Source: Spirochaetia bacterium UBA2205
Lineage (GTDB): Bacteria > Spirochaetota > UBA4802 > UB4802
NCBI GenBank assembly: GCA_002328585.1
Contig: DCUV01000014.1
Location: forward strand, 31,893-95,892
Reading direction: 5' to 3'
DNA length: 64,000 nucleotides
A program made the translations under genes and the position numbers. The notes under the pieces are model-generated. The model made no database searches and had not been told where the DNA came from. It saw nothing but the letters and a program-made list of their open reading frames with translations. Shown piece after piece: positions 2,969 to 57,154 of this stretch (positions are counted from its first letter, which is position 1; each line of letters opens with the position of its first letter).

Positions 2969-3094
2969 ATATTTTCAATTTTTAAAACACTATCTTAATA
3001 TTTTCATCCTAATTATCACAACTGTGCTATACATTAGGAGTAACTATCGCATGCCACGTAACTCAACATTGATATTGATTATCTTATCAATGTA

Positions 3095-3499
3095 ATGCAG
3101 ATGCATGATAGGTTGAATGAATACTATATTGACCTTGAAACAGGTAAAATAGTTTGTAATGAAGAATTACCTGATGATTATAATCTTAGTGAAGATGATT
3201 TGTTGTCTGAAGATGTATCTATTGATTATGAATCTGATCGTTATTTATGGATTCCCTTTTTTGAATCAAGCAAAGCATATAGGTTTATGGAAGATTTTAT
3301 ATATGAATTAGAGAATGAAGAGGCGCGTAAAAAAATAGTATATGCAATACAGGGTAAAAAACCCTTTAGGAGATTTAAAGATGCGCTACAGGCGTTTCCA
3401 GATATTGAAAAACAGTGGTATGGTTTTGAAGAAAAAAGGATGAAAGAGTATATCGTAGAGTGGTTACATGAATATGATATTGCAATTGAAAGCTCATAA
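3095..3499 (+). CDS. UPF0158-family protein, with an apparent 1-nt frameshift near the N-terminus
   Basis: Pattern YYIDLETGKI...YRFMEDFI...AIQGKKPFRRFKDAL...W matches my recollection of UPF0158. An AGGAG RBS and ATG at 3051 are out of frame with the body. Confidence 0.7.
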   Translation: MQMHDRLNEYYIDLETGKIVCNEELPDDYNLSEDDLLSEDVSIDYESDRYLWIPFFESSKAYRFMEDFIYELENEEARKKIVYAIQGKKPFRRFKDALQAFPDIEKQWYGFEEKRMKEYIVEWLHEYDIAIESS

Positions 3500-3607
3500 T
3501 TATTTTAATTGGTTGTGTATATATGAACATTTTTTTGTACATTATACTGTACCATATAAATTACGATATTTTGTTTACAGCTACATTAATCGATCAAGGG
3601 TAAATAT

Positions 3608-4501
3608 ATGATAAACAACGCACTTAAAGAAAGAATGGAAGCACTGCTAAACAGCAGAGAAGATTGGCCTGTTGATGAACTTCATCAAGAGCTGGAAAAA
3701 ATTGTCGATGAAATGAATAAAAAACCATTAGATAATTTTGAAGGATTTTCTCCTGCAGATATGCACTATATACTTTATACTCCGTTTCATGAAAAATGCC
3801 CTATTGGTATAAATACTGATATTTCCAAAGATTTTTTACTACAGCATTCACCCTTATTGAAGTTAGCAGTATATATTATGGAAAAAATTAGCGCAGAAGG
3901 TCCTATGCCATTAACATCTAAAGGTAATCTTAAGGTAAGCTTTATTAAAGAATTGTATAATCTTGGGATTTATTATGGTTATGATAGGGACAGTTTTGAA
4001 AAACGTCCTTACCAGAGTAACTGGAATTTTCTTGAGGCTGTTATGCTTACTTGTATTATCGCCGGTGTTTTGAAAAAAATAAAAGGAATACTTGATATTA
4101 CAAAAAAAGGTAACGCATTATTGAAGGACAATGGTTCGTCGCTCTTTAAGGTATTGTTTATAGCTTATACAATTAAATTAAACTGGGGGTATTTTGATTT
4201 TTTTGAGGATGATGATTGTGGCCAACTTGGATTTTTGTGGACATTATGGATTCTTAAAAAATATGGTTTTACGCCTAAACCAGCCAGTTTTTATGCGCAA
4301 AAATATTTAACAGCGTTTCCAATATTTATTAACCAGCAGAATAACATGCATTTTGCGGATGCCTGTTTTACAGTTCGTTTTATGGCTCGTTTTTGTAGTT
4401 ATTTTGGTTTTATTGCCAGTGATAATAATGACAATATGGCATTATTTTTAAAAGATCCTGAAATTGTTAGTACACCACTTTTGAATGCATTTATCAAATA
4501 G
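3608..4501 (+). CDS. Hypothetical protein between cas3 and cas4
   Basis: 297-aa ORF with coding-like composition; no motif I can name. Confidence 0.7.
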   Translation: MINNALKERMEALLNSREDWPVDELHQELEKIVDEMNKKPLDNFEGFSPADMHYILYTPFHEKCPIGINTDISKDFLLQHSPLLKLAVYIMEKISAEGPMPLTSKGNLKVSFIKELYNLGIYYGYDRDSFEKRPYQSNWNFLEAVMLTCIIAGVLKKIKGILDITKKGNALLKDNGSSLFKVLFIAYTIKLNWGYFDFFEDDDCGQLGFLWTLWILKKYGFTPKPASFYAQKYLTAFPIFINQQNNMHFADACFTVRFMARFCSYFGFIASDNNDNMALFLKDPEIVSTPLLNAFIK

Positions 4502-4553
4502 TTATGGTTAATTCTTTTATATAAAGTTTATGCTTAATAATCAAATATATTTA

Positions 4554-4583: not shown

Positions 4584-4592
4584 TTAAGGAAT

Positions 4593-5096: not shown

Positions 5097-5104
5097 GTAT
5101 TACC

Positions 5105-6082
5105 ATGAAGGATTACTACATATTTAAAAGCGGGCGCATTAGCCGCAAGGATAATTCCATAGTGCTTGAAACCAATGATGGTAATATCTTTATACCCATT
5201 AATGATATTGATAGCCTTTGCTTTTTTGGCGAGATTGATATAAATACAAAAGCAATTAATTTTTTAGCACAGCAGCAGGTTGTTGTACACTTTTTTAATT
5301 ACTATGGATGGTATACCGGCAGTTTTTATCCCCGCGAATTTTTGCTATCGGGTGATGTACTGGTGGCTCAGGTAAAGGCGTATCTTGACATGCACAGCAG
5401 AACATATATTGCACGGCAGTTTGTGCAGGGTGCAATTCACGGTTTTATAACCAATATAAAGCGGTATCCTGATGTTGGCGATGCGGCAGTGGATACATTA
5501 CAACAGTACATCAATGCAACTGAAGAGCAATCCAATGTACTATCGCTCATGGGTATTGAAGGAAATGCGCATGAATTATATTATAGCACGTTCCCTGTCA
5601 TAATAAAGCAGCCAATAGAATTTGAAAAAAGGGTAAAACATCCGCCCAACAATATGATGAATGCATTGATATCGTTTTGCAATAGCCTTGTTTATACGCA
5701 TGTAATCAAAGAACTGTATAAAACACAGCTTAACCCAACTGTTAGCTATTTGCATGAGCCATCAAACAGGCGGTTTTCACTTTCACTTGACGTATCAGAA
5801 ATTTTTAAACCAATATACGCAGACCGTGTTATCTTTGACTTGTTAAATAATAACATGATAACCCAAAAACATTTTGACAAAGATTTAAATTACTGTTATT
5901 TAAAAGAGGATGGGCGCAAGATTGTGGTTAAAGCTTTTGACGATAAGATTAATACAACGGTTATGCATAAAAAGTTAAAACGCAATGTAAGCTATCAAAA
6001 GATGATACGCCTTGAATTGTATAAGCTTATTAAACATCTATTAAATGAAGAGCAGTATCAAAGTTTGCGGATATGGTGGTAA
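5105..6082 (+). CDS. cas1: CRISPR-associated Cas1 (type I-B-like)
   Basis: GRISRKDNSI, LMGIEG, NALISF, SYLHEP, SLDVSEIFKP motifs; ATG 5105 preferred over the track start at 5084. Confidence 0.95.
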   Translation: MKDYYIFKSGRISRKDNSIVLETNDGNIFIPINDIDSLCFFGEIDINTKAINFLAQQQVVVHFFNYYGWYTGSFYPREFLLSGDVLVAQVKAYLDMHSRTYIARQFVQGAIHGFITNIKRYPDVGDAAVDTLQQYINATEEQSNVLSLMGIEGNAHELYYSTFPVIIKQPIEFEKRVKHPPNNMMNALISFCNSLVYTHVIKELYKTQLNPTVSYLHEPSNRRFSLSLDVSEIFKPIYADRVIFDLLNNNMITQKHFDKDLNYCYLKEDGRKIVVKAFDDKINTTVMHKKLKRNVSYQKMIRLELYKLIKHLLNEEQYQSLRIWW

Positions 6083-6166: not shown

Positions 6167-6260
6167 TGTTCCCATTATTAAAAATGTATTTAAAGAAGGT
6201 ATACTATATGAATAATATATTTAAAAAAATTGTTGGGGCGATAGTTACTGGACATTAAAA
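6167..6260 (+). other. Candidate degenerate repeat/36-nt/degenerate repeat unit between cas1 and cas2
   Basis: 6167-6195 matches the array repeat at 15/29 and ends in the exact ATTTAAAG; 36 nt follow; 6232-6260 matches at 16/29 ungapped. Confidence 0.4.
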
Positions 6261-6285
6261 AATTGATGGATAACAGTGTAATGCC

Positions 6286-10411: not shown

Positions 10412-11137
10412 TTATGACGTTTGAGTAAGTTCTATACACCCCTTTATAGCCATTGTATCCCAGTATATCACCATGGCTCCCGTAACGCCAGATATTGTAC
10501 AGGCATACTCCAGCGCATGAACACAATCCTCTTCTTTTTGTACCCTGTTACAGGTTGCTGTTGCAACCGCATCAGCCAGTGACGCCGACGATGCAAGTAT
10601 GGTTACACAATCGGCTTTGCCAAAACTAAATGAGTGTCCAAAACGCCCTGATGATGAACAAATTCCTGATGGCGTGTCATGCGGTTGAATAACAATACCA
10701 CAATCACCCAAAAATGCCTTCCTTCCCGCAAAAACCTTGATAACAGCAGGCTCCTGTACCTTTGCCCAGATATCGCCACCGTTTTCAATAATTATCTCCG
10801 GGCTATAGGTAGTCAGCTCTTCGCCAATCATCTGGGCGATAGTTCCGGCAACTGCTGCCATTGGACCAACGGAAGCCTTTGCTGTAGCACTATACATCCT
10901 CCGTACCACCTCCGGAGCAGATGGATCAAATTCAAGAGGTGATAGCGCATGCAGAAAGTTATCATGTTTTGCAATGTAGTCTTTAATATCGTTGCGCAGC
11001 TGATGAACTAATTGCAGGGTTCTATCGCCAAGATTGTTATGAGCACATATAAACAGGCTGGTGGTTTCAACACAAACTTCAAATGTTGTAAAGCGTGTAT
11101 TTTGAATCAGTGCTCTGTATGCCAATGTGCTGTTCAT
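10412..11137 (-). CDS. UPF0280 / ApbE-like protein (COG2122)
   Basis: VGPMAAVAG, IIIENGGDI, GICSSSG..GHSFSFGKAD, LADAVATA motifs. Confidence 0.85.
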   Translation of the reverse strand: MNSTLAYRALIQNTRFTTFEVCVETTSLFICAHNNLGDRTLQLVHQLRNDIKDYIAKHDNFLHALSPLEFDPSAPEVVRRMYSATAKASVGPMAAVAGTIAQMIGEELTTYSPEIIIENGGDIWAKVQEPAVIKVFAGRKAFLGDCGIVIQPHDTPSGICSSSGRFGHSFSFGKADCVTILASSASLADAVATATCNRVQKEEDCVHALEYACTISGVTGAMVIYWDTMAIKGCIELTQTS

Positions 11138-13924: not shown

Positions 13925-14067
13925 GATCGTGGTATAATTAACTTAGAATTTAGTTATACTATCGGTATAATGCTAATAATGCAACAATTTTTTAATTGCA
14001 ACAAGATTGACATTTTTATATACTGTAATACACAATGCCACCTTATGACATACTGAAGAGGTACACT

Positions 14068-14931
14068 ATGTTTGATATACTTTTTCCATCCGCATCATCT
14101 ATTGCTGTTATAACGCTATTGAGTTTGGCATGCGGCATATTGCTTTCACTGGCAAAAGTACTGCTCAAGGTTGAAAAAGACCCGCGTATTGATAAAATTG
14201 TTGAATCACTTCCCGGTGCTAACTGCGGCGCATGTGGTTTTCCTGGATGCGTTGGTTATGCCACTCATATAGTTGAAAAGGGCGCAGCCATTAATCTTTG
14301 TCCTGTTGGTAGTTCCGATAGTGCACAAAAGATATCGCAGATTATGGGAATAGAAGCCGACGTAATGGCAAAACGAATCGCGCGTGTACACTGTCAGGGC
14401 GGTATTAATGAAACAAAGATACGTTTTATGTATGATGGTCCTCATAGCTGTACGGCTGCTCAACTGGTTATGGGCGGTTTCAAGGTTTGTGAATTTGGAT
14501 GTTTGGGATTGGGTGATTGTGTCCGTGCATGCCCCTTTAATGCTATCCATTTAGACAAACGAGGGTTGCCATTGGTTGATGCAGAAAAATGTACTGGTTG
14601 CGGTAACTGCGTTGAAGCATGTCCGCGTAATATTATAAGCCTTTTAGATGAAAACATTGATGTTTATATGATGTGCCGCAACAAACAAAAAGCGCCGGTT
14701 ATGAAGTTAGGATGCAGCGTTGGTTGCACAGCGTGCCGGCGTTGCGAAAAGGTCTGTCGTGAGGAAGTTTTTAAGGATAATCCCAATGTGGATACAGCAA
14801 TTAAAGTAGTTGATTTTTTAGCTGTTATTGATTATGAATTGTGTATTAATTGCGGCAGGTGTGCCGAAGTTTGTCCGCAGAATGTTATAGATTTTAAAAA
14901 AGTTATGGTAATCAAGCGTGAAACCAATTGA
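14068..14931 (+). CDS. rnfB: RnfB-type electron transport subunit
   Basis: N-terminal TM, LPGANCGACGFPGC, CPVG, CEFGCLGLGDCVRACPF and further ferredoxin motifs. Confidence 0.9.
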   Translation: MFDILFPSASSIAVITLLSLACGILLSLAKVLLKVEKDPRIDKIVESLPGANCGACGFPGCVGYATHIVEKGAAINLCPVGSSDSAQKISQIMGIEADVMAKRIARVHCQGGINETKIRFMYDGPHSCTAAQLVMGGFKVCEFGCLGLGDCVRACPFNAIHLDKRGLPLVDAEKCTGCGNCVEACPRNIISLLDENIDVYMMCRNKQKAPVMKLGCSVGCTACRRCEKVCREEVFKDNPNVDTAIKVVDFLAVIDYELCINCGRCAEVCPQNVIDFKKVMVIKRETN

Positions 14932-15934: not shown

Positions 15935-16760
15935 AAAAGAAATCCTTTCATGGCTGCAGCAGTATGGGCTTGCTCCTAACAAGATGTATGGGCAGCATTT
16001 TTTGTTTCATGAAAAATATATTGAGGCGATAGTTACTGCAATCAGTCCTTGCAGTGCTGATGTGGTACTTGAAATTGGTCCAGGGCTGGGAGTGCTTACG
16101 CAACGATTGAGTGAACATGCAAAGAAGGTCATTGCAGTGGAGATTGATGCTGGATTTGTTGAGGTTTTACAATCAAGGTTTGCTAACAATTCCAGAGTAA
16201 CTATCGTACATAATGATTTTTTAAAAACAAATCCTTGCCATGAATGTACTGTGCTCACCGGTAACCTTCCTTATAATATTTCTTCACAGATTATTTTTGC
16301 AGCAGCACATAACTATACAGCAACCCATTGTTTTTTTTTGTTGCAAAAAGAGATGGCGCAGCGTCTTATAGCAAAACCAAAAAGTGCCATGTATTCAGCA
16401 TTTACCGTGGGAATTGGATTATATTTTACTGTTCAAACATTATTTGATATACCGCCACAAGCCTTTTACCCAGCGCCTAAAGTGTATTCAACATTTGTAA
16501 AGCTTACCCGAAAAAATACTGTAATGCTTCATACTGATGAAAAAGCGGTGTTTGAGCAGCTTGTAGCAACTGCGTTCTGGGCACGCCGAAAGATGCTGAA
16601 AACAGCGTTGAAACGTTCGCCCTATACAACCTACAGTACGGCTTTTATTGCACAGGCTTTTGGCCAATTGGGTTTTGATGAAAAGGTGCGGGGCGAAGAG
16701 CTTACCCTTGATGAGTTTGTTGCGCTGGCAAAGTACTGTACGCATTATAGCAATAAATAA
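15927..16760 (+). CDS. rsmA: 16S rRNA dimethyltransferase RsmA/KsgA
   Basis: YGQHFL, VLEIGPGLG, GNLPYNIS, FYPAPKV motifs. Confidence 0.93.
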   Translation: MNKKEILSWLQQYGLAPNKMYGQHFLFHEKYIEAIVTAISPCSADVVLEIGPGLGVLTQRLSEHAKKVIAVEIDAGFVEVLQSRFANNSRVTIVHNDFLKTNPCHECTVLTGNLPYNISSQIIFAAAHNYTATHCFFLLQKEMAQRLIAKPKSAMYSAFTVGIGLYFTVQTLFDIPPQAFYPAPKVYSTFVKLTRKNTVMLHTDEKAVFEQLVATAFWARRKMLKTALKRSPYTTYSTAFIAQAFGQLGFDEKVRGEELTLDEFVALAKYCTHYSNK

Positions 16761-23047: not shown

Positions 23048-23335
23048 GGTACGCCTCGCTTTTAATTTAAAAAATTTATGTAAAAAAAATAGCACCCTGC
23101 AATAGAATAAAAAAAACGTGCTATTCATTACAAATTACTAAACATAACTATCATATCCATAGTCAAGAAATTTATCGAAAAAAAGGCAGATTATTAATAA
23201 CAATAAAACAATAATCCCAGATGGTTGGTAATATATTTTTTTGCCATTAAACAAACATTATTGTAAATGTCAATAGAAAAAATGACAAGATGTTTGAAAA
23301 GTAATGCAAATTCACGATAAATAAAACAGTAGTAA

Positions 23336-35938: not shown

Positions 35939-36284
35939 ATACCATTAAATTAACCCGCGTGTGCCGCAGTGGTATGAATATTTGAGCTCCCTTTGTAAAG
36001 GTGGATTCTCGCATACGGACATCTATCTACTTCATAATGAAGCGTGATATAAATCCGCAGATTAGAGATTCCCTGCTCAGTAGTATTGGAACTACAATAT
36101 GACATACCATACACGAACACCGCAGGCTTACTGTCTAATATACTGAAATAATATTTATTGGCAACAAAAATTTTACTTGCTAATGTGGGTGAAAACACTG
36201 ATACAGTGTGGAGCATGGTTTCATAACAATAACTGATATACAGTAACTATCGAACACAAAAAAGCTTTAAAGGCTACATCCGCA

Positions 36285-40387: not shown

Positions 40388-41097
40388 TCCCGGCAATCGA
40401 TTTAAAAGAAGGCAGATGTGTACGCCTGGTGCAGGGCGACCCATTGCAGGAAAAGGTGTATTCGTATGACCCGGTAACTATCGCCCGGCAATTTGAAGAT
40501 GCTGGTGCACAGCTTATTCATGTTGTTGATCTTGATGGAGCATTTGAAGGGCAGCCTGTCAACATGCATATTGTAAAGGAGATTGCAAAATCGGTTTCTA
40601 TTCCTATTGAAATTGGTGGTGGTATCCGTACCGAGGCTGCTATTAAAATGTATCTTGATGAGGGAATAGAGCGTATAATAATGGGTACCATCCTTATTGA
40701 GGAATCGTTTAGAGAAATAATTCAAAGGTTTAAAGAGTATATTATAGCAGGTGTTGATGCAAGGGATTTACATGTTGCTACACATGGGTGGAAAAAAATT
40801 ATTGACATAAATGCCATTGAATTTATAAAGGATATCCAAAGTATTGGTATTGCAGAGATTGTTTATACAGATATAGCTACTGATGGTATGCTGCAGGGAC
40901 CAAATTTTCTATCGATAGAAAGAATATTATCTAATGTTTCAGGAGTTTCGTTAATTGCCTCTGGTGGTGTCTCTACGATGCAGGACATACAAAAATTGTT
41001 GCACTATTCGGGTAGCGGATTAAAGGGTTGCATAATTGGTAAAGCTATATATGATGGGATGGTAGATTTACGCAGTGCAATAAAGCTGTGTAGTTAG
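40378..41097 (+). CDS. hisA: ProFAR isomerase
   Basis: IPAIDL..G.CVRL.QG, HVVDLDGA, GGGIR, TDIATDG. Confidence 0.95.
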   Translation: MLVIPAIDLKEGRCVRLVQGDPLQEKVYSYDPVTIARQFEDAGAQLIHVVDLDGAFEGQPVNMHIVKEIAKSVSIPIEIGGGIRTEAAIKMYLDEGIERIIMGTILIEESFREIIQRFKEYIIAGVDARDLHVATHGWKKIIDINAIEFIKDIQSIGIAEIVYTDIATDGMLQGPNFLSIERILSNVSGVSLIASGGVSTMQDIQKLLHYSGSGLKGCIIGKAIYDGMVDLRSAIKLCS

Positions 41098-46180: not shown

Positions 46181-47287
46181 ATGCCACGTTCTCAGTATTT
46201 AAAACGGGTAAAGACTATTGTTGTTAAGGTTGGCTCATCGCTCATTACCAATTCAGATGGTATATCTGCTGAATGCGTTGATAAGCTTGTTGACGATGTT
46301 GTTTTTCTTATTAAAAAAAAGTATAAAGTAGTGATTGTAAGTTCAGGTGCTATCAGTGCTGGTTCTGCTGTTATGAAAAAAAAACGCATGCTGTGCACAA
46401 TCCCGGAAAAACAAGCGTTAGCTGCTATTGGACAATCAATACTTATGGATGTTTACCGGGGATGTTTTAATAAACGTGGATATGAGGTTGGACAGATTTT
46501 GCTCACCGAAGATGATGTAAAACATCGCAGGAGATTTTTAAATGCTCGACATACCTTGAATGCTCTTCTGGATATGGGAGTTGTACCGATAGTTAATGAA
46601 AATGATTCGGTTGTCATTAAAGAGATTAAATTTGGTGATAACGATACACTCTCAGCACATGTTGCAAATATTGTACAGGCTGATCTATTGATATTGTTGT
46701 CGGATGTTGATGGATTTTACTGGGATGATCATGATGAAGAACCGGTGAGTGAGATTTTTGAAATAAATGATGAAGTAAAAAAACGATGCCGTGGTGCAGG
46801 TAGTGAGCATGGGATAGGTGGCATGGTTACAAAGATTAAAGCAGGCGAAATAGTTATAAAATCAGGCGAGATGATGATAATTGCCAATGGCAAAACTGAA
46901 AATATATTAAAGCGGATAGTGCAAGGGGAGAAGATAGGCACACTCTTTTCAGGAAAAACACAGTTGAAAAGCAAAAAACGCTGGCTTGCATTTAATGTTA
47001 AATCAAAAGGTAAGCTTACCATAGATGATGGCGCGGTGAAGGCATTGAAAGAAAATAAAAAATCACTGCTTGCCATAGGGATAACCAATGTTGAAGGGAG
47101 TTTTGATCTGGGCGATGCAGTTGAGATAGTTGATACTAATGGAACGATCATTGGTAAAGGTATTGTTAATTATACCAGTGATGAATTACATAAAATAAAA
47201 GGCAAGAATACTCAGGAAATAAAAAAGATATTTGGTTCAAAATATTATGAAGAGGTCATAAACAGGGACGATTTAATTGTGTTTTAA
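46181..47287 (+). CDS. proB: Glutamate 5-kinase with PUA domain
   Basis: VVKVGSS, VSSGAI, NENDSV, FGDNDTLS, GGMVTK. Confidence 0.95.
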   Translation: MPRSQYLKRVKTIVVKVGSSLITNSDGISAECVDKLVDDVVFLIKKKYKVVIVSSGAISAGSAVMKKKRMLCTIPEKQALAAIGQSILMDVYRGCFNKRGYEVGQILLTEDDVKHRRRFLNARHTLNALLDMGVVPIVNENDSVVIKEIKFGDNDTLSAHVANIVQADLLILLSDVDGFYWDDHDEEPVSEIFEINDEVKKRCRGAGSEHGIGGMVTKIKAGEIVIKSGEMMIIANGKTENILKRIVQGEKIGTLFSGKTQLKSKKRWLAFNVKSKGKLTIDDGAVKALKENKKSLLAIGITNVEGSFDLGDAVEIVDTNGTIIGKGIVNYTSDELHKIKGKNTQEIKKIFGSKYYEEVINRDDLIVF

Positions 47288-47471: not shown

Positions 47472-50219
47472 ATGATAAATACAATATTAAGCCTTTTCTT
47501 TGGAACAAAGCATGAGCGTGATATTAAAAAACTGAAACCAATAGTACAGCAAATAAATGCTCTTGAAGATGAAGTGAAAAAGCTTACTCAGGATCAGATG
47601 CTTGCAAAAACTGCTGAATTCAGAGGCCGCATTGAAAATGGACAGCCGGTAGATGATTTATTACCGTATGCCTTTGCCATGGTCAGGGAAGCTGCATGGC
47701 GCACCATTGGGATGCGGCATTTTGATGTACAGCTTATGGGAGCTATAGTACTGCATCAGGGTAAGATTTCTGAGATGAAGACCGGTGAAGGAAAAACGCT
47801 GGTTGCAACCATGCCGGTGTACCTGAATGCATTGGCTGGCAATGGTGTGCATGTTGTAACAGTTAATGATTATTTAGCACGTCGAGACTCTGAGTGGATG
47901 GGTCCAATCTATAAGTATTTAGGGCTTACAGTTGGAGTGATTCAGCATAACATGGATTACTATCAGCGCCAACAGTCATATCGTTGTGATGTTACTTACG
48001 GGACCAATAATGAATTTGGTTTTGATTATTTGCGCGATAATATGGTCGAGCATCGTTCACTGCGAGTTCAGCGTGCACTGTATTATGCAATTGTTGATGA
48101 GGTGGATTCAATTCTCATTGACGAAGCGCGTACTCCGCTTATTATATCAGGCTCTACTGATGAATCTACAAAAAAATATTATTTGATTAATAAAATAATT
48201 CCAGGACTCAGGGAGGGCGTTGATTATGAAGTAAATGAAAAGGATCGCAATTCCCTTTTAACCGAAGAGGGTGTTCGCCATGTTGAGCGGCTTTTAAAGA
48301 TAGATAATCTATACGATAGTCGCAATATAGAATTAGTTCACCATGTTGACCAGGCATTGAAGGCGCATACGCTGTTTAAACGTGATACCGATTATATTGT
48401 AAAAGATGGGCAGGTTATCATTGTTGATGAGTTTACCGGGCGCCTTATGCCAGGCAGGCGGTATTCTGACGGTTTGCATCAGGCACTGGAAGCAAAGGAA
48501 AATGTAACCATAGCCCGTGAAAGCCAGACATTTGCACAGATTACCTTTCAGAATTACTTCAGGATGTATAAAAAATTAGCAGGTATGACAGGTACTGCCG
48601 ATACTGAAGCCATAGAATTTAAAAAGATATATAACCTTGAAGTTGTCGTTATCCCAACAAATGAACCGGTACACAGAACCGATTATCCGGACAGGATCTA
48701 TCGCACTGAAAAAGAAAAGTTTAACGCTATTGTAAAGGAGATTCAACAATTGCGTGAAGATGGCAGACCTGTGCTGGTTGGTACAATATCGATAGAAAAA
48801 TCCGAGAAGCTTTCGGAGATGCTGCGGCGGCTTGGCGTAGGGCATAATGTTTTAAATGCAAAATATCATGAAAAAGAGGCACAGATTATTGCTGAGGCAG
48901 GTCGTCCTTCAACAGTAACTATCGCCACAAATATGGCTGGTCGTGGTACTGATATTGTATTGGGAGGCAGGAAAACCTACATTGACGAATTAGAAAGCTG
49001 GCAGCCGGTTCATGATGCGAAGCTCTGGGAGCAGTACCGGGAAGCTGTTTTAAAAAATGATCTGGATATTGCCACAAGCCATGCAAATACCATGACAGGA
49101 CAGGACCAGCATAAAGCTCTTGAGATTATCCGTAAAGCCAGGGAGTGGCTGGATAATCATAATACAGTAGTTGCTGCGGGTGGTTTACATATACTGGGTA
49201 CCGAGCGTCATGAAGCACGCAGGATTGACAACCAGTTGCGTGGAAGGTCAGGACGGCAGGGCGACCCGGGTTCATCGCGGTTTTACCTTTCACTTGAAGA
49301 TGATCTTATGCGGATTTTTGGTTCAGAGCGCATTGCTGGCGTCATGCAGCGCCTTGGCATGGAAGAAGGGCAGGAGATAGAAAGCAGGATGGTATCACGA
49401 GCCATTGAAAATGCTCAGAAACGCGTTGAAAGCAGAAACTTTGAGATTCGTAAGCATCTGCTTGAATATGATGATGTTATGAATAGTCAGCGTGAATATG
49501 TTTATAAAGAACGAAATGCAATACTTGATGGTGAAGATGTATCCGTTAAGATTAAGCAATATATTGGTGAGGTTGTTGAGAGCTGGGTGCCGTATTTTAC
49601 ACAGGGAAAACGAAATGCTGAAGATTGGGATATAGAGGGATTAAACGGCTGGTTGTATTCAAAATTTGGTTTTGATTTGCAGTCAATAGCAAAAGATGGG
49701 GCGCGTCTTTCACATGATGAGATTATAGATGGTATTACCAATACATTGATGCAATTATACAGTGCTAAAGAGGTGGAGATAGGCAGTGAGCATATGCGTA
49801 CGCTGGAGCGTTTGGTATCCCTGCAGGTAATAGACGCTAAATGGCGTGATCACCTGCTGGTAATGGATGATTTGCGCGATGGCATATGGACTGCAGGATA
49901 TAGCGAGCGTAATCCTCTGGTTGAATATAAATTGCGCGGTTTTGAACTTTTTAATGAGATGCTGGATAATCTCAAACTAGATATTATTGAGATGCTTTTG
50001 AAGGTACGTTTACAAAAAGTTGAGGAAATTGCAATACAACCGGAGCAGATTGCAATCCCAATGGGTCAGGAATATCATCCCGAAGTTGAGCAGTTTGGTG
50101 CTGGTGGCATACCGGTTGCTCCGCTACCAATAGCAATAGCCTCACAGGGTGAGGATAAAACAAGAGAGGTGACTGGTGGGGTAAGGCGTAAAAAGACACG
50201 AAGAAGCAGGCGGGGATAA
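47472..50219 (+). CDS. secA: Preprotein translocase SecA
   Basis: [50 protein letters not shown]. Confidence 0.97.
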
Positions 50220-50221
50220 CA

Positions 50222-51586
50222 ATGAGCCTTATGAAAAGCATCTCCGGTATCAGAGGTATTGTTGGTCAGTCTCTGACGCCTGATTTGATTACAAAGATAG
50301 CAATGGCTTTTTCCAGACATATAGGTGGCGGTACAGTAGTTGTTGGCAGGGATTCGCGCGGTAGCGGCGGTGCCATTGCCGGATGTTTTGATGCTGTTTT
50401 GTCGCTGTGTGGATGTAATGTTATTGATATTGGCATTGTTCCCACCCCAACCGTGCAGATTATGGTTGAGCATATGAAGGCAAAAGGTGGAGTGGTAATT
50501 TCAGCGTCACATAACCCCATACAGTGGAATGCCTTTAAATTGATCAACAAATCGGGAAACTTTTTTGGTCCTGACGAGATGAATGGCTTTTTGCAGCTTG
50601 TTGATGAGATATCGCCGTTTGGTGTAGCATGGAATAAGATAAAACCAATACAGTGTGATGATACTGCAAGGGATATACACATCCAGAAGGTTTTAAAAGC
50701 TATTGATGCTGATGCTATCCGAAAAAAACATTTCACGGTTGTGCTTGATTCGGTTAATGGTGCTGGTTCAATAATTACACCAGAACTGTTGAAACATTTA
50801 GGATGCAGGGTTATACCAATATATTGTGATATGCAGTCTGGAGTTTTTCCACGCGGTGCGGAACCTCTTGCTAAAAATTTAATGCAACTGGCTGATGCGG
50901 TAAAACAGCATAAAGCTGATATTGGGTTTGCTCAGGACCCGGATGCTGACAGGCTGGCGATAGTTGATGAAGATGGAAAACCCATTGGCGAGGAGCTTAC
51001 GGTGACACTGGCAGTCATGCGATGCCTTTTGAAGAAAAAAGGCTCTGTTGTGGTTAATATGTCCACCACCGGAGCGGTTGAGGATGTTGCTCATAGATTT
51101 GGTGCTACCGTATATCGTTCAAAGGTTGGTGAGATTCATGTTGTTGAGGCAATGAAAAAGCACAGGGCAGTTGTAGGCGGCGAGGGCAACGGTGGTGTTA
51201 TTGCACCAGAGGTTCACTATGGGCGCGATAGCCTTGTGGGGATTGGTTATTGCCTTGAGCTCATGGCTTTGCACAATACATCGATTTCAGAGCTTGTATC
51301 GTCCCTGCCGGCGTATTACATGATAAAGGATACAATTACTGTTGAGCAGGGAATTGATACAGGAGCTATCGAACATGAAATTACCAGCCAGTACCATGAT
51401 GAAATAATCAATACGCTTGATGGAATACGCGTCGATTTTATTCATCATAACCTCTTTAAAGGCGGGTGGGTGCACTTACGAGCTTCCAACACTGAGCCAA
51501 TTTTCAGGATTATTGCCGAAGGTAAAACAAAAGAGCAATGCAGGGCAATAATTGATACTTTCAAAACCATGACGATAACGTCATAA
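50222..51586 (+). CDS. Phosphohexomutase (PMM/PGM or GlmM-like)
   Basis: SASHNP and DPDADR motifs, GGEGNG. Confidence 0.88.
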   Translation: MSLMKSISGIRGIVGQSLTPDLITKIAMAFSRHIGGGTVVVGRDSRGSGGAIAGCFDAVLSLCGCNVIDIGIVPTPTVQIMVEHMKAKGGVVISASHNPIQWNAFKLINKSGNFFGPDEMNGFLQLVDEISPFGVAWNKIKPIQCDDTARDIHIQKVLKAIDADAIRKKHFTVVLDSVNGAGSIITPELLKHLGCRVIPIYCDMQSGVFPRGAEPLAKNLMQLADAVKQHKADIGFAQDPDADRLAIVDEDGKPIGEELTVTLAVMRCLLKKKGSVVVNMSTTGAVEDVAHRFGATVYRSKVGEIHVVEAMKKHRAVVGGEGNGGVIAPEVHYGRDSLVGIGYCLELMALHNTSISELVSSLPAYYMIKDTITVEQGIDTGAIEHEITSQYHDEIINTLDGIRVDFIHHNLFKGGWVHLRASNTEPIFRIIAEGKTKEQCRAIIDTFKTMTITS

Positions 51587-51721
51587 CTATAATTACTTGA
51601 CAAAAAATTGCCTTACTCCGTAATACTATCGCATTCAATTTTATTACCTATTATTTTGTTATTTTTGAATTTTATATTGATTGTGGTATTGTGCAATATT
51701 ATTTTATAGTGGGTTGGAAAA

Positions 51722-53494
51722 ATGTTCAAAGATAGGAGCTATTGTGGCGAATTAACGCTTGATGATGCAGGTAAACAGGTTACCCTGGCTGGTTGGGTTG
51801 ATACCAAGCGTGATTTAGGCGGCATAATTTTTATTGAGATGAGGGATGTTACGGGTATTATTCAGGTAGTTTTTGATGTGTCAAAAAATGGTGAAGCATA
51901 CCAGATAGCGGATAGAGCAAAAAGTGAGTACTGCATCTATGCGTGCGGGGTTGTTTCAAAGCGAACTGACGATACCATAAATCCCGATCTTAAAACAGGT
52001 ATGATTGAGGTTGTGGCTCATGAGGTTGTTATTTTATCCGAATCAGAGGTGCCTCCTTTCCCAATTGATGTGTATACCAACCTTAATGAAGAGGTCAGGT
52101 TGAAATATAGATTTTTAGATTTACGAAGGGCCGAAATGCAGCAGGCGATAGTTATTCGGCATAAGGTTATGCAGGCTACACGGAATTATCTTTCCAGCAA
52201 TAGATTTTTTGAAATAGAGACACCCATTTTAAATAAATCAACGCCGGAAGGTGCACGTGATTTCCTTGTACCAAGCCGCATAAATCGCGGTATGTTTTAT
52301 GCATTGCCACAATCCCCGCAGCTATTCAAGCAGATTTTGATGATATCTGGTTTTGACCGCTATTTTCAGATTGCCAGGTGTTTCCGTGATGAAGATTTAC
52401 GCAATGACCGTCAGCCTGAATTTACTCAAATTGACTGCGAGCTTTCGTTTATTACCCCACAGATCATTATGCAGGTTATTGAAGGGTTGATCAAAGAGAT
52501 GGTAAAGGTGCTGGGTAACGACATACATACACCATTCCCGGTAATGACCTATGACGAAGCGATGCAGCGGTATGGTAAAGATGCACCTGATACAAGGTTT
52601 GGGCTTGAGCTTGTTGATGTAAGCGATATCTTTGCCAGCTCTTTATTTAATGTGTTTAAGGCTTCGCTTGATAACGGCGGCATTATTAAAGCGATAGTTA
52701 TTAATGATGAAGGCAAAATTTCGCGTGCCATGATTGATGAGTACATTAACTATGTACGGACATTTAAGGCACATGGTTTGCCAAGTGTACGCTACACCGG
52801 CAGCAACTTTGAGACGGGAATAGCAAAATTTTTAAGTGATAGCGAAAAGCAAAAGCTTATTGACAGGCTTTCGTTAGATTCAAATTCGCTTATTATTTTT
52901 TCGTGCGATAAACCAAAAGTTGTCAATGATGCTCTGGGAAATTTAAGGCTTAAAATAGCACAGCAGCTCACTATGATTGACGACAATAAACTTAACTTTT
53001 TATGGGTTGTTGATTTTCCACTGCTTGAGTATAATGCTGAAGAGGGCAGATTTTATGCTATGCATCACCCTTTTACTGCTCCAAAGCCTGAGTGCGAAGC
53101 AATGCTGGACTCGTTAACACCGGATAATGTTGATATGATCAAAGCTCAGGCGTATGATGTTGTCCTTAATGGTGTTGAGATTGGTGGCGGTTCCATACGA
53201 ATTAACCGTACCATGTTGCAGAAGAAGATGTTTGGCATATTGGGGATATCAGAAGAGGACGCCAAAATTAAATTTTCATTTTTACTTGATGCATTGAAGT
53301 ATGGTGCCCCGCCCCATGGCGGTATAGCACTGGGATTGGATAGAATTTTAATGATTTTGTTAAAACGAAATTCCATACGTGATGTCATTGCATTTCCAAA
53401 GACTCAGAAAGGGCAGTGCCTGATGAGCGAAGCTCCGTCGCCAGTGAGCCACGAGCAGTTAAAGGAGCTATCCATTAAGGTGGTTGAAGTATAA
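51722..53494 (+). CDS. aspS: Aspartyl-tRNA synthetase
   Basis: ALPQSPQLFKQ, CFRDEDLR.DRQPEFTQ, PPHGGIALG.DR. Confidence 0.96.
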   Translation: MFKDRSYCGELTLDDAGKQVTLAGWVDTKRDLGGIIFIEMRDVTGIIQVVFDVSKNGEAYQIADRAKSEYCIYACGVVSKRTDDTINPDLKTGMIEVVAHEVVILSESEVPPFPIDVYTNLNEEVRLKYRFLDLRRAEMQQAIVIRHKVMQATRNYLSSNRFFEIETPILNKSTPEGARDFLVPSRINRGMFYALPQSPQLFKQILMISGFDRYFQIARCFRDEDLRNDRQPEFTQIDCELSFITPQIIMQVIEGLIKEMVKVLGNDIHTPFPVMTYDEAMQRYGKDAPDTRFGLELVDVSDIFASSLFNVFKASLDNGGIIKAIVINDEGKISRAMIDEYINYVRTFKAHGLPSVRYTGSNFETGIAKFLSDSEKQKLIDRLSLDSNSLIIFSCDKPKVVNDALGNLRLKIAQQLTMIDDNKLNFLWVVDFPLLEYNAEEGRFYAMHHPFTAPKPECEAMLDSLTPDNVDMIKAQAYDVVLNGVEIGGGSIRINRTMLQKKMFGILGISEEDAKIKFSFLLDALKYGAPPHGGIALGLDRILMILLKRNSIRDVIAFPKTQKGQCLMSEAPSPVSHEQLKELSIKVVEV

Positions 53495-54453: not shown

Positions 54454-54471
54454 TATTATCTGGTTATTATT

Positions 54472-56718
54472 ATGCTAAATTCATTTATGTCATTTAAACG
54501 GGGCATAGAATTTGCTCTTAAAAAGAAAAGTATAAGACTTTCATTTATATATACTATTGTGGTCATTGTATCCGCTACCGCGCTTCTTACCATCAATAGA
54601 ACAGGTGCTACCTACAATTATGAGGCTGGTGATATAGCACGTGAGGATATCCGTGCACCAATGAATATTGAATACCCGGTTGCTTTAGAAACGGAAATAG
54701 AAAAAAGCCGTATTGCGGAATCCATGCCTGCGGTATTTGATCTCAACGAATCAATTGTAGAGGATAAGCTTAAGATATGCAATATATTGTGTGAAGCTGT
54801 CATTAAGGTTAAGCAGCAGATGCCGGATACCAATCCTTTTAAGCAGGTTTTATTGCTCAGAACCATGCTGCCCGATTATCTCCAGTATTCAGATAAGGTA
54901 TTAATTGGGCTATTGCAATATGATGAGCAGCTTTTACATAGAGACATGAATAAAGTTATTTTACAGGTTTACAATAATGGAATTCTTGAAAAGCAGTATA
55001 CAAATCCGCTTAAGCTCAAATCAAATTTTATAGTCATCCGTGTTATAGGCAATACTTCAGAATTAAAGGAAAAGCAGGTCAGTATTGATGCTCTGTATGA
55101 CATCAACAAAATTAAAACATTAGTACCGGTAATATGTAAAGAAGTATGTAATCAGCCGTCAAATGAGGTTGTATATGCTATCAGTTCCGTTGTTATAAGT
55201 TTGTTACAACCCAATCTTTTTTTTAATGAAGAAGAAACAAAGAAAAGGATAACTGATGCCATTCAATCGGTAAAACCGGTGATGCGTGTCATTAAGAAAG
55301 GACAATCAATTGCGCGTGAAGGGGATACAATCACTGAAGATGTTTTAAAAAAGATTAATATTATCAATAAAAATTCCAGGTTTTCAGGTTTCAGTTTTGT
55401 ACTGGGATTACTTCTTACCCAATTGGGTTTTCTGGTCATTTTTGGCTATTTTTTAATTACCTATTATACCAATCTGGTTGTTGACAATAAGATGCCATTG
55501 ATTGTGTTTACCCTTGTCATGGCATTTATCATTATTACTTTTTTTATGGCACGATGGCAGGGTAGAGTATTTGAAGGGCTTTTCTTTCCGCTTCTTTTGC
55601 CAATACCACTGATAACAATGATATTGGCTATAATGTACAATATCCATATTGCCATGTTAATTGGGATGTATGTTGTATTCTTTGTAGCAATTATTACAAA
55701 AGGCGATTTCACCTCATTACTGCTGGCTTTCAGTTCGGCACTTTCAGGAGTATTTGTTGTAGGTGATGTAGAGCGGCGATCAGACTTTTTACGGGGAGGA
55801 TTTACGTTAGGGCTTATTAACTCAGTGATTGTTATTTCAGTTGGTTTAATGCATGAATTATCATTTGCTATGATTCTGAATAATATAGGGCTTGCATTTG
55901 TTTCAGGAATTATCAATGCGATAGTTGTTTTTGGAGTATTTCCAATCTATGAAAATCTTTTTGGTGTTACAACAAAATTTAAGTTGCTGGAACTATCCGA
56001 TCTTAATGCACCTATTTTCAGGGAGATGCTTATAAAAGCTCCGGGAACATACAACCATTCAATCATGGTTGCAACGCTTGCTGAATCAGCATGCAAGGAG
56101 ATTGGAGCCAATGCATTGCTTGCCAGGGTCGGAGGATATTACCATGATATAGGTAAAATTCAGGATGCAAACTTTTATATTGAAAATAAGGTTACCGATC
56201 CGCGCGCTAAAAAGTTATCTGCCCTTGAGTATTGTAAATTGATAATATCGCATGTTGAGAAGGGAGTTGAATTAGCGCGCAAAAATAATCTACCCGAGAT
56301 GGTAATAGATTTTATCCGTGAACATCATGGACAAACGGTAATGACATATTTTTACCATCAGGCGCTGGAGGAGAGTGGTGCCAGTGGAGATATTATTCAG
56401 AAAAGCGATTTTCAGTATCCCGGTCCCAAACCCCATACCCGGGAAACTGCAGTTGTTATGCTTGCAGATGCAATTGAGGCTGCAACACGCTCTATTCAGG
56501 AGCCAACCATCGAAAAATTAGAATCTTTGATAAAACGAATAATCAATAACCGTTTGAACGAGGGCGATCTGGAGCGCGCTGATATTACCATGAGTGATCT
56601 TAACAGGATTCAGCATTCCATATTACAGGTATTGCAGGGAATATTCCACTCACGCATTGAATATCCAACAAACGATGAGATTAATCGATTGGAGCAACGG
56701 TCACAGTATGGGCATTAA
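54472..56718 (+). CDS. 7TM-HD (HDIG) phosphohydrolase, PgpH-like
   Basis: Large extracytoplasmic domain, TM cluster, KAPGTYNHS, YYHDIGK, EHHG, LADAIEAA. Confidence 0.88.
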   Translation: MLNSFMSFKRGIEFALKKKSIRLSFIYTIVVIVSATALLTINRTGATYNYEAGDIAREDIRAPMNIEYPVALETEIEKSRIAESMPAVFDLNESIVEDKLKICNILCEAVIKVKQQMPDTNPFKQVLLLRTMLPDYLQYSDKVLIGLLQYDEQLLHRDMNKVILQVYNNGILEKQYTNPLKLKSNFIVIRVIGNTSELKEKQVSIDALYDINKIKTLVPVICKEVCNQPSNEVVYAISSVVISLLQPNLFFNEEETKKRITDAIQSVKPVMRVIKKGQSIAREGDTITEDVLKKINIINKNSRFSGFSFVLGLLLTQLGFLVIFGYFLITYYTNLVVDNKMPLIVFTLVMAFIIITFFMARWQGRVFEGLFFPLLLPIPLITMILAIMYNIHIAMLIGMYVVFFVAIITKGDFTSLLLAFSSALSGVFVVGDVERRSDFLRGGFTLGLINSVIVISVGLMHELSFAMILNNIGLAFVSGIINAIVVFGVFPIYENLFGVTTKFKLLELSDLNAPIFREMLIKAPGTYNHSIMVATLAESACKEIGANALLARVGGYYHDIGKIQDANFYIENKVTDPRAKKLSALEYCKLIISHVEKGVELARKNNLPEMVIDFIREHHGQTVMTYFYHQALEESGASGDIIQKSDFQYPGPKPHTRETAVVMLADAIEAATRSIQEPTIEKLESLIKRIINNRLNEGDLERADITMSDLNRIQHSILQVLQGIFHSRIEYPTNDEINRLEQRSQYGH

Positions 56719-57154
56719 CGTTACTATTGAAAGTGAAGATATTTCAGTTTCCAAATATTTAAAAACATTCTGTAAAAAAAACATAACGGCTATACTACAG
56801 TATCTACATATTGATAATGTTGCTATAACACTGGTGCTTACCGGTGATGAGGCAATTGCCAGCATTAATAGTAACTATCGCAAAAAAAAAGGACCAACCG
56901 ATGTGCTTTCCTTTGCCTACCGTGAGGCACCAACACCCATGGCTGACGGTTTACCAGAATATCTTGGCGATGTAATCATATCACTTGAAACAGCACAAAA
57001 ACAGGCGCAAGAATATAATGTTCCCCTGCATGACGAAATACTCCGGCTTATAGTTCATGGCATGTTGCATCTATTGGGTTATGACCATGAGCAATATTAC
57101 AAAAAAAAACAGATGCAAAAAAAAGAAGAAGAACTGCTGCAGCATTTACGTTGA
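56708..57154 (+). CDS. ybeY: rRNA maturation RNase YbeY
   Basis: PTDVLSF, LGDVIIS, HGMLHLLGYDH; ATG 56708 preferred. Confidence 0.94.
   Translation: MGINVTIESEDISVSKYLKTFCKKNITAILQYLHIDNVAITLVLTGDEAIASINSNYRKKKGPTDVLSFAYREAPTPMADGLPEYLGDVIISLETAQKQAQEYNVPLHDEILRLIVHGMLHLLGYDHEQYYKKKQMQKKEEELLQHLR

Follow-up and report, generated by a model that had tools for sequence, protein, structure and literature searches.

An asymmetric DNA word built around ACTATCGC is a genome-wide, clade-specific DNA-level signal in a genus-level clade of uncultured Spirochaetota. It occurs in excess, independently of coding, is spread through the genome without polarity, has arisen by substitution and is conserved above background. 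We give a probability of about one half to the reading of the word as a new uptake-signal-like sequence, of the kind that the USS and DUS exemplify, and we infer that biased DNA uptake is the force behind its excess.

Excess of the word in the window

The window, meaning the whole 64-kb stretch of DNA that was analysed, has a GC content of 37.6%, close to the ~37% assumed in the original prediction. It contains nine exact copies of the 11-mer AGTAACTATCG, as against 0.02 expected and a largest shuffle value of 1, and 26 copies of the core AACTATCG (12 on the + strand and 14 on the -), where 1.47 are expected and no shuffle gave more than 4. The original prediction had placed all nine 11-mers correctly by coordinate and strand, had counted "at least 26" cores, which is the exact number, and had understated the excess. 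Allowing up to one mismatch, the 11-mer has 18 matches in the window versus 0.50 expected; the one-mismatch copies named earlier (24832-, 40473+ and 60137+) are present, along with six further ones. Of the 25 cores whose flanks are complete, 17 are followed by C, as had been noticed. An unbiased k-mer scan of the window ranked words derived from GGCGATAGTTACT at the top after the CRISPR repeat was set aside.

Variant analysis revealed a strict core with tolerant edges; the central core shows hardly any enrichment of its one-mismatch variants. The word has ACTATCG(C) as its minimal invariant unit, ACTATCG having 37 copies in the window (Table 1), and the extended form approximates 5'-(T-rich) A C A G T A ACTATCGC C C A (A-rich, then T-rich)-3'. 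Flanking T at -9..-7 reaches 56% and A at +11..+15 reaches 47%, over a background of 31%, and genic copies share this pattern. The word carries ~20 bits of information, at ~0.4-0.7 copies per kb.

Table 1. Copies of the word in the window. L207 is a 95%-identical strain; L204 and L208 are sister-lineage loci.
Form	Position	Strand	Context
11-mer AGTAACTATCG(C)	3039..3049	+	intergenic within cas operon, after cas3
11-mer, full form CCAGTAACTATCGCCC	6239..6249	-	cas1-cas2 intergenic
11-mer	16027..16037	-	antisense in rsmA/ksgA (EAIVT)
11-mer	16196..16206	+	sense in rsmA/ksgA (RVTIVH); inverted copy at 16027, 173 bp away
11-mer	21495..21505	+	antisense in B12-binding radical SAM gene (DAIVT)
11-mer	23331..23341	+	overlaps stop codon of HerA-like ATPase gene
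11-mer	36242..36252	+	intergenic, 6S RNA gene (35948-36131, -) to ORF starting at 36285
11-mer	48914..48924	+	sense in secA (TVTIAT); identical in L207, L204, L208
11-mer	56870..56880	+	sense in ybeY (NSNYRKK); sister species NKTYRQK/NKTYRKK, without motif
core AACTATCG(CCC)	10837..10844	-	sense (AGTIAQ)
core AACTATCG(CCC)	17186..17193	-	antisense in radical SAM gene (RGDSYP)
core	18933..18940	+	sense (DNYRF)
core AACTATCG(CC)	20411..20418	+	antisense (DGDSFK)
core	22709..22716	-	sense in inositol-phosphate synthase-like gene (DELSK)
core	28222..28229	+	antisense in carB (YSIVL)
core	36743..36750	-	antisense (MHDSSG)
core CAGGAACTATCGCC	40231..40238	-	antisense in hisH (IGDSSW); no copy in L204
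core CGGTAACTATCGCCC	40476..40483	+	sense in hisA (PVTIAR; PESIAK in L204)
core	46587..46594	-	antisense in proB (VPIVN); kept in 4/4 compared genomes
core AACTATCGCC	50958..50965	-	antisense in glmM (LAIVD); ACTATCGCC part kept in 4/4 compared genomes, preceding base T in L204
core AACTATCGCC	52146..52153	-	antisense in aspS (QAIVI); this species only
core AACTATCGC	52692..52699	-	antisense in aspS (KAIVI)
core AACTATCGC	55919..55926	-	antisense in HD-domain membrane protein gene (NAIVV)
core AACTATCGC	57188..57195	-	sense (IKTIAS)
core CAGGAACTATCGCCC	58239..58246	-	sense (QELSP); kept in 4/4 compared genomes
core	63992..63999	+	at window edge
short TACTATCGC	5539..5545	+	in cas1
short TACTATCG	13958..13964	+	intergenic
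short CACTATCG	14316..14322	-	in RnfB-like gene
short TACTATCGC	20958..20964	-	
short GACTATCG	27766..27772	-	in carB
short TACTATCGC	28452..28458	-	intergenic
short TACTATCG	29496..29502	+	
short CACTATCGCCC	37520..37526	+	
short GACTATCG	48314..48320	-	in secA; kept in L207 and L204
short TACTATCGC	51625..51631	+	glmM-aspS intergenic; kept in L207 and L204
short CACTATCG	60429..60435	-	

The word might be regarded as an incidental product of base composition, or of coding in which certain peptides or codon pairs are frequent, since most copies are genic and a few peptides recur (AIV, TIA). Genic cores in the window, however, number 21, as compared to 2.57 +/- 1.5 (maximum 8) in 1000 synonymous shuffles that kept the proteins and per-gene codon usage, and to 1.38 with codon order shuffled. 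The 8-fold excess left by this codon- and peptide-aware null agrees with the earlier view that codon bias alone was unlikely to suffice, and the peptides cited in its favor (VTI, AIVT and, in ybeY, SNYR) are encoded as described. Across 200 kb of pooled sequence, copies occur in each of the five stop-free frames (NYR 10, ELS 11, xTIA 16, AIV 19, GDS 11), on both strands (sense:antisense 37:30), and the pooled copies are ~68% genic and 32% intergenic. Sister species encode identical peptides with or without the word, and genomes of similar GC lack it. The shuffles, the frame use and the sister-species peptides refute an origin in coding or composition, the chance of which we consider negligible.

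Distribution and orientation of the copies

The enrichment reported for the window was found beyond it at equal density, so neither of the two results that the original prediction had named as refuting it was obtained. Fifteen non-overlapping metagenome contigs (136.6 kb) contain 56 non-seed cores, or 0.41/kb, which equals the window density, and 6 ACTATCG lie in 8.8 kb of unseeded flanking sequence from the genome of the window. The density of ACTATCG is 0.6-0.7/kb in the window, in the 15 independent contigs and in unseeded flanks; word totals per whole genome are extrapolations from this sampled DNA. The word-bearing contigs hold ordinary chromosomal genes (ftsK, dnaX, mutase), and the density falls to roughly half in a CRISPR-Cas/toxin-antitoxin island (4 copies versus 8.7 expected, P=0.06).

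Every sampled member of the genus-level clade has the word, ACTATCG occurring at 0.57-0.74/kb in the 95%-identical strain L207 and in five sister-lineage loci (L204, L208 and L327-329). The 5' extension varies between species, and AGTA is specific to this one: L327-L329 lack the 11-mer and have only ACTATCGC in common with this species. The next relatives, L205 and L206 (SecA 70-74% identical), have 0-1 ACTATCG, and L209 has 5 (0.22/kb), in a weak variant only. Control DNA (1.49 Mb from 80 other genomes) yields 0.013 cores/kb, so the word is lineage-specific, as had been supposed. Related spirochaete lineages may have words of their own, for example GGGGAAGT in L206 and ACTATCTC in L209.

Orientation was scored against the majority gene direction, by which alone replication direction was approximated, and the pooled copies are unbiased at each of three motif lengths (63:69, 47:51 and 16:20, the second being 47 co-oriented and 51 contra-oriented copies). 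Copies follow each other at near-exponential spacing (CV 0.95). Pairs within 100 bp are inverted in 13 cases versus direct in 4, and several of the inverted ones form intergenic hairpins, which have long loops and are not obvious terminators. Half of the 11-mers are intergenic, as against ~15% of the DNA.

These data bear on a polar role, either as a Chi site for RecBCD/AddAB or as a KOPS-like word that orients FtsK. Over-representation, lack of palindromy and lineage specificity would also mark such a signal, the clade has a gene for an FtsK that includes a gamma domain, and in the window alone the 11-mer favors the + strand by 7:2. Known Chi sites (5-8 nt) and KOPS are, however, shorter and less specific than this word, and words of their type usually lie 75% or more on the leading strand. 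The absence of polarity in the pooled data argues against Chi or KOPS, as do the frequent inverted pairs and the 12:14 division of the core in the window, where + carries most of the genes, and we hold such a role to be very improbable. The original prediction, which had proposed orientation skew as a means to separate Chi/KOPS from DUS, left the choice among an uptake, a recombination and a chromosome-organisation signal; uptake is favored, fitting all that was tested, and the polar role fails for want of an orientation bias.

Origin by substitution and conservation

Comparison of lineage-specific copies to orthologous sequence uncovered substitutions only, with no indels. Many of the copy-creating changes are purely synonymous (in VKTIVVK, YYAIVDE, RHPIVEK and LSDSEK), and some alter residues (PVTETP>PVTIAP, VINVTL>VITIAL, NKTYRQK>NSNYRKK). 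Shared sites are retained above control 7-mers, in 6/13 versus 16% (p=0.01), 5/10 (p=0.013) and 7/12 versus 30% of cases. One 95%-identical strain pair showed no mosaic recombination pattern.

Spread by insertion, as a miniature mobile repeat of the REP or MITE kind, could be suspected from some intergenic regions, where two or three copies stand as inverted repeats with hairpin potential. Yet 30 intergenic copies have no similarity beyond ~+/-20 bp, and where a conserved gene has a copy, orthologues without the word can be aligned to it free of indels. The absence of indels and of shared flanks means that the word is not a mobile repeat; for genic copies the substitution origin refutes one outright, and overall we consider this origin exceedingly improbable.

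The uptake reading and comparison with known systems

If the word serves uptake, the transformation machinery would include a DNA receptor, at the surface or in the periplasm, that prefers double-stranded DNA with ACTATCGC in an A/T-rich, easily deformed context. Better-matching fragments would be taken up and recombined more frequently, so that point mutations giving rise to the word, or bringing a sequence closer to it, would spread ("molecular drive"), perhaps with the aid of selection for the uptake of conspecific DNA, through the population. Copies would build up where the protein tolerates them, and in full form between genes. A balance of mutation and drive might predict more decayed copies than the scarce one-mismatch core variants. 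Biased uptake fits the density, the strand symmetry, the use of all frames and the in situ origin, and also the clade restriction with variable extension, the A/T-rich flanks and the inverted intergenic pairs.

All of the sequence properties found are also compatible with a chromosomal binding site that is non-polar and under selection. The word could have such an intracellular function with no DNA uptake, whether as a high-copy site bound by a nucleoid-associated, segregation or repair protein or as a HIP1-like word maintained by sequence-specific repair or gene-conversion bias. The excess, coding-independence, conservation, restriction to a clade and the bias of the long form toward intergenic DNA suit any selected DNA signal or biased repair, and HIP1 is a precedent for a hyper-abundant word with an unclear maintaining force. 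The ~330 kb of sampled clade DNA, too small a fraction of the genome to be telling, contained no comEC, comEA, dprA, type IV pilus or pilin genes and no prepilin motif, and no spirochaete is known to be naturally transformable. Against an intracellular role, no nucleoid or segregation protein is known to have specific asymmetric sites of this kind in numbers above 1000; HIP1 is palindromic and this word is not; and methyltransferase or very-short-patch repair effects involve words of 4-6 bp in modest excess. The C>T (deamination) variants of this word show no special depletion. Its A/T-rich flanks and its inverted intergenic pairs also match the reported anatomy of uptake sequences, and an intracellular function is on balance rather unlikely. 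On transformability in spirochaetes, the literature search yielded only that ComEC-type proteins are common in the phylum (PMC6299819).

The bias could instead be located in the donor, the word being a signal for packaging or export of host DNA by a gene transfer agent, vesicles or a secretion system, under the same molecular-drive logic. Because any sequence-preferring transfer route enriches its word by the same dynamics, the density, conservation, substitution and clade data fit a donor-side signal equally, and among spirochaetes Brachyspira carry the gene transfer agent VSH-1. Known gene transfer agents, however, show no sequence specificity in the DNA that they package; the sampled loci have no phage-like or terminase genes, and viral contigs with the 14-mer have a background density of 0.035 extra cores per kb. 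We regard a donor-side signal as improbable.

Returning to uptake, the word may, at somewhat less than even odds, belong to a DNA uptake sequence system that would be the first beyond the Proteobacteria. If true, an uncultured Spirochaetota genus associated with anaerobic digesters would undergo natural transformation, preferring conspecific DNA tagged with ACTATCGC and taking it in by way of a receptor unrelated to ComP.

The USS of Pasteurellaceae are of a Haemophilus influenzae type, AAGTGCGGT, and an Actinobacillus type, ACAAGCGGT, and the DUS of Neisseriaceae, recognized by the minor pilin ComP, comprise GCCGTCTGAA and its dialects. ACTATCGC does not resemble these three sequences, and the word therefore belongs to neither described family; the earlier statement that none of the known DUS, USS, Chi and HIP1 sequences matches it is right, and a literature search for the word returned primers only. 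Like the USS, the word has a strict short core with weaker A/T-rich flanks (as in Haemophilus), a density near one copy in 1-3 kb with copies on either strand, mostly genic copies in several frames, accumulation by substitution and inverted intergenic pairs. It differs in its unrelated sequence, its spirochaete rather than gammaproteobacterial host, the rarity of one-mismatch central-core copies and an uptake bias and competence that are predicted. Within genes lie 65% of H. influenzae USS and 34.5% of DUS (PMC2817400), the latter being mostly intergenic or in terminators; the share noted here is ~68%. In common with the DUS are a clade-restricted 10-12 bp word whose outer positions vary by species as "dialects" (PMC3630211, PMC3868556) and inverted pairs between genes (10.1101/2025.10.24.684340); intergenic preference and inverted pairs have been reported as traits of known uptake sequences (10.1101/2025.10.24.684340; PMC2817400). 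The sequence is unrelated to DUS as well, and its long-looped hairpins are not obvious terminators.

The cyanobacterial HIP1, GCGATCGC, is likewise hyper-abundant, present in all frames inside and outside genes, conserved beyond expectation and unclear in function, and it has GCGAT in common with the word. HIP1 is a perfect palindrome, whereas AGTAACTATCGCC differs from its own reverse complement, and the hosts are Cyanobacteria and Spirochaetota, respectively. The Chi (GCTGGTGG) and KOPS (GGGNAGGG) of E. coli are strongly co-oriented with replication, unlike this unoriented word of 12-14 nt, and REP/MITE elements differ from a word with no information beyond ~+/-20 bp. The polarity of Chi/KOPS, the palindromy of HIP1 and the extended element of REP/MITE are each absent from the word. 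What it has in common with uptake sequences is their copy density, both orientations, use of frames and inverted pairs, and restriction to a clade with variants.

Enrichment of the word in the window and beyond

All nine exact copies of the 11-mer AGTAACTATCG that the original prediction had named were found, seven on the forward and two on the reverse strand, against 0.02 expected from dinucleotide-preserving shuffles. The 8-mer core AACTATCG, said to occur at least 26 times, was counted 26 times (12 on the forward and 14 on the reverse strand; 1.47 expected), and the three one-mismatch copies singled out by eye lie among 18 sites within one mismatch of the 11-mer (0.5 expected). The shortest invariant unit, ACTATCG, has 37 copies in the window. 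An unbiased k-mer scan of the window yielded two sets of outliers, words derived from GGCGATAGTTACT and the CRISPR repeat GTTTGAGCTTCCAATAGTGGGATTTAAAG; kinship between word and repeat was rejected, the one element that they have in common, ATAGT, being judged coincidental.

The view that codon bias does not explain these copies was upheld. Gene calling gave 53 genes, which take up 89.5% of the window's length, and 1000 shuffles of synonymous codons within each gene, with proteins and per-gene codon usage kept, produced 2.57 ± 1.5 genic cores (maximum 8) as compared to 21 observed; shuffling codon order produced 1.38. In a pooled 200 kb the core occupied all five stop-free frames, both sense (NYR 10, ELS 11, xTIA 16) and antisense (AIV 19, GDS 11), and 32% of copies were intergenic or at gene edges, as against about 15% of the DNA. 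An artefact of coding is contradicted by this direct test. An Rfam search at the word copies returned no RNA family.

The window matches two separate contigs of the metagenome-assembled genome GCA_002402695.1, DHGI01000025.1 on the left and DHGI01000046.1 on the right, and recurs in near-identical form in the JGI metagenomes 3300001580 and 3300002703, the copies from three samples being 99.99-100% identical. Since the window bridges both contigs, it stems from an assembly of that population with longer contigs. Other public sequences of the clade are the contigs ERZ6864144:c_000000713149 and Ga0495054_000136 and, for a sister lineage, GCA_964509195.1; GCA_964627815.1 and GCA_942491575.1 are relatives that lack the motif. 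Metagenome contigs were scanned with the 14-mer CAGTAACTATCGCC, which gave 120 loci, mostly chance matches, and an enriched set of 15 loci was defined by a GC of 0.34-0.40, at least three cores and no overlap with the window. These 15 contigs hold 56 non-seed cores in 136.6 kb, or 0.41/kb, which is the density of the window itself; 34 other loci of equal GC hold 10 in 205 kb. Their gene content is ordinary chromosomal (methylmalonyl-CoA mutase, ftsK, dnaX, a chemoreceptor, a DinG-like helicase), and the unseeded right flank of the window contributes six ACTATCG in 8.8 kb. The enrichment expected elsewhere is thus present, and the word is genome-wide.

Viral contigs with the 14-mer were chance matches at background core density. 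The sole contig of the viral collection with copies clearly above chance (IMGVR_UViG_3300046002_004681, 13.8 kb, GC 0.42) carries five AACTATCG, three of them followed by C; it may derive from a provirus, or be a stretch of a related lineage's chromosome wrongly classed as viral.

Phylogenetic range and origin of the copies

SecA homologues fall into identity steps of 96-99%, 87% and 70-74%, and radical-SAM homologues into steps of 99%, then 66-69%, then at most 48%; together these steps mark out a genus-level clade, with many strains in the 96-99% step. In every clade member the top over-represented 8-mers are words derived from the motif, and more distant SecA relatives among the matches listed served as a negative control.

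Occurrence of ACTATCG in loci of the clade and of its relatives
Locus	Relationship	ACTATCG copies	Remark
L207	SecA 96%, DNA 95%	13 (0.57/kb)	same species or near
L204, sister lineage	SecA 87%	15 (0.66/kb)	T or A precedes core
L208, sister lineage	SecA 87%	12 (0.74/kb)	
L327, L328, L329, sister lineages	radical-SAM 66-69%	15, 12, 12 (0.67-0.71/kb)	11-mer AGTAACTATCG absent; ACTATCGC common
L205, outside clade	SecA 74%, GC 0.58	1	
L206, outside clade	SecA 70%, GC 0.44	0	
L209, outside clade	SecA 73%, GC 0.54	5	weak excess of ACTATCTC
80 other genomes (among matches listed)	SecA at most 58%, 1.49 Mb	79 (0.053/kb)	19 AACTATCG; 11-mer 0

Two of the outside relatives may have words of their own. The 22.7-kb locus L206, on a 3.7-Mb contig (GCA_942491575.1), holds 10 copies of the 8-mer GGGGAAGT (7 on the forward and 3 on the reverse strand; 0.63 expected) across unrelated genes, and this may be an over-represented word peculiar to that lineage. 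In L209 (JGI Ga0180433_10000772), ACTATCTC / GAGATAGT is in weak excess, with six copies (0.34 expected), and 22.7 kb contain 18 ACTATC; in this small sample it could represent a divergent form of the clade word, with T replacing G.

No rearrangement separates the window from L204, with which it aligns at 76% nucleotide identity. In three genome pairs, complete conservation was more frequent among orthologous 7-mers than among control 7-mers: 6 of 13 between the window and L204 (controls 16%, p=0.01), 5 of 10 between the window and L208 (controls 16%, p=0.013), and 7 of 12 between L204 and L208 (controls 30%, p=0.04). There is also turnover, in that more than half of the sites are lineage-specific, and at these the genomes differ by substitutions only. 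Many gains are synonymous and preserve the peptide (VKTIVVK, with AACAATAGT versus AACTATCGT; YYAIVDE, RHPIVEK, LSDSEK, VKTIVT), and others change the protein (PVTETP to PVTIAP, VINVTL to VITIAL, TGAIEH to TVTIAQ, NKTYRQK to NSNYRKK). The alignments indicate that point mutation writes the word into existing sequence, at times at the protein's cost, and that it is then retained. Such an origin and retention exclude an inserted mobile repeat, which the direct test contradicts, and point to a directional force acting on the DNA. A check for recombination mosaics in the sole diverged strain pair showed a uniform identity of about 95%.

Orientation, anatomy and genomic setting

Since GC skew tracks the coding strand here, gene orientation stood in for the direction of replication. 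Relative to the direction of most genes on a contig, 47 copies are co-oriented and 51 contra-oriented; copies inside genes lie on the sense strand in 37 cases and on the antisense strand in 30. No orientation bias was seen for any motif length tested. Roles of the Chi or KOPS type need co-orientation with replication, so a word without polarity argues against both, and a polar signal is contradicted by direct test. A likeness between GGCGATAGTTAC and GGCGGTAGnnTG, the 'ops' element of RfaH, was dropped: the word is equally frequent on both strands with respect to transcription and also lies inside genes.

A logo of 78 non-seed copies is T-rich at -9 to -7, with C at -4, A at -3, G at -2 and T or G at -1 ahead of AACTATCG, which is followed by C in 61 of the 78, then by C or A, then by C. 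Downstream it is A-rich at +11 to +15 and T-rich at +17 to +19, and the flank is poor in G. Genic copies alone keep these flanks (T 56% at -9 to -7, A 47% at +11 to +15; background 31%). The central part is strict, since ACTATCG variants with a single mismatch are at or near background; the outer positions are tolerant. Thirty intergenic copies read jointly as tttttACAGTAACTATCGCCCAAAA...ttttt and have nothing in common past about ±20 bp. The longer the form, the more often it is intergenic, as are half of the 11-mers. Spacing is near exponential (CV 0.95); pairs at most 100 bp apart are inverted in 13 cases and direct in four, and several close pairs form intergenic long-loop hairpins, for example at 221-256 of L200, a locus with word copies, and among the three copies that share a spacer in another such locus, L192.

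Features of the window
Feature	Position	Strand	Remark
Exact 11-mers	3039, 16196, 21495, 23331, 36242, 48914, 56870	+	
Exact 11-mers	6239, 16027	-	
Named one-mismatch copies	24832, 40473, 60137		
CRISPR-Cas island	about 1-9725		plus about 4.2 kb leftward (whole island: 5200-19100 of L332, which reaches left of the window)
CRISPR repeat GTTTGAGCTTCCAATAGTGGGATTTAAAG	6.7-8.6 kb		16 copies
CRISPR array, fragmented	6707-8620		5 repeats, 8 repeats, three solitary degenerate terminal repeats
Four-helix-bundle '23S rRNA intervening sequence protein' gene	7962-8324		between array pieces
SocA_Panacea pair	8823-9823		191-aa SocA_Panacea-domain protein and 141-aa ORF without family; one-base overlap
FliG, RnfB-like and rsmA/ksgA genes	14035-16760		
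Stand-alone FliG-family gene	14918-15934		
HerA/DUF87-type ATPase gene	23336-24847	-	
6S RNA gene	35948-36131	-	Rfam, 57.9 bits
tRNA	43641-43714	+	Rfam

As compared to the sister locus L327, a type I-B CRISPR-Cas system with a toxin-antitoxin pair makes up a 13.9-kb island of GC 0.31 between Bflower-family and NIL/ferredoxin genes, and is missing at this position in L327. Depletion in acquired DNA, which had been proposed as a check, was found as a trend only: ACTATCG occurs four times against 8.7 expected at the density of the remaining sequence (P=0.06), and the density, though lowered, is still clearly higher than background. Of these copies, three are long forms, two of them intergenic, and one is a short form within cas1.

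The island's genes run cas6, an NTP_transf_2/HEPN pair, a 532-aa ORF, cas7 (DevR), a 210-aa ORF, cas3, two ORFs without an NCBIfam family match, cas4, cas1 and cas2, followed at the edge by the SocA_Panacea pair, which looks like a toxin-antitoxin pair. Each solitary repeat of the array stands in one duplicated context, TTACC-repeat-GTAGCAGTTAT. A search of IMG/VR with four of the 11 spacers gave no exact 24-nt match.

Elsewhere in the window, an 88-aa ORF coincides with the 6S RNA gene and would be mistaken for a gene by mechanical ORF calling; the RNA gene has an exact 11-mer some 110 bp upstream. Another overlaps the stop codon of the HerA/DUF87-type ATPase gene, which is conserved in the clade, flanked by carB and an inositol-phosphate-synthase-like gene, and whose product is weakly similar, far below threshold, to the archaeal DNA-import ATPases CedB/CedD and to VirB4. 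The FliG-family gene overlaps those for an RnfB-like Fe-S protein and rsmA/ksgA, an arrangement kept in all sister lineages.

A candidate uptake signal and its relation to known systems

By its sequence properties and by analogy, the word would be a signal for biased DNA uptake, the reading that we rank first at a probability of roughly one half. Proteins of the ComEC type are widespread in Spirochaetes (PMC6299819). Among the 20 largest ORFs of the enriched contigs, a Pfam scan turned up no competence genes, and a regular-expression search for prepilin motifs over about 330 kb of clade DNA found none; these samples are too small for a conclusion. Natural transformation is not known to us from any spirochaete. 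The chief rival, a chromosomal word without polarity that acts inside the cell, either as a protein-binding site or in the manner of the cyanobacterial HIP1, fits all measured sequence properties equally well; we hold it to be rather unlikely. A signal for packaging or export that acts in the donor would be a lesser version of the transfer hypothesis.

Literature searches for the word itself returned primers and unrelated matches only, and gave no report of it, or of any uptake-type sequence, in Spirochaetota; a search for the assembly accession had no result. According to a 2025 survey (10.1101/2025.10.24.684340), the latest that we came across, sequence-specific DNA uptake is known from two proteobacterial families only. 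If the word is an uptake signal, it would be an independent third case, in a phylum without known natural transformation, and would show the repeated evolution of self-preferring uptake. It would also provide a genomic signature for predicting the competence of uncultured bacteria from metagenomes, and a fresh system for the discovery of DNA receptors and for tests of molecular-drive models; to our knowledge, a receptor for sequence-specific uptake is known in just one of the two proteobacterial families. Should it instead be a chromosomal binding site, its protein would have over a thousand asymmetric sites of high specificity, which would itself be unusual. Under either reading, the word offers a practical marker by which to assign digester metagenome contigs to the clade during binning.

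In PMC2817400, the abstract of 10.1101/2025.10.24.684340 and PMC3458573, the uptake sequences of Pasteurellaceae and Neisseriaceae are described by very high copy number, strand symmetry, occupation of several genic frames, build-up through substitutions, confinement to a clade within which the outer positions vary, inverted intergenic pairs and lower density in recently acquired genes. The property set of the word is the one described there; it is not a member of either family, because its sequence is unrelated. The Haemophilus uptake sequence has a strict core with A/T-rich flanks, and in these two features the word is particularly similar to it.
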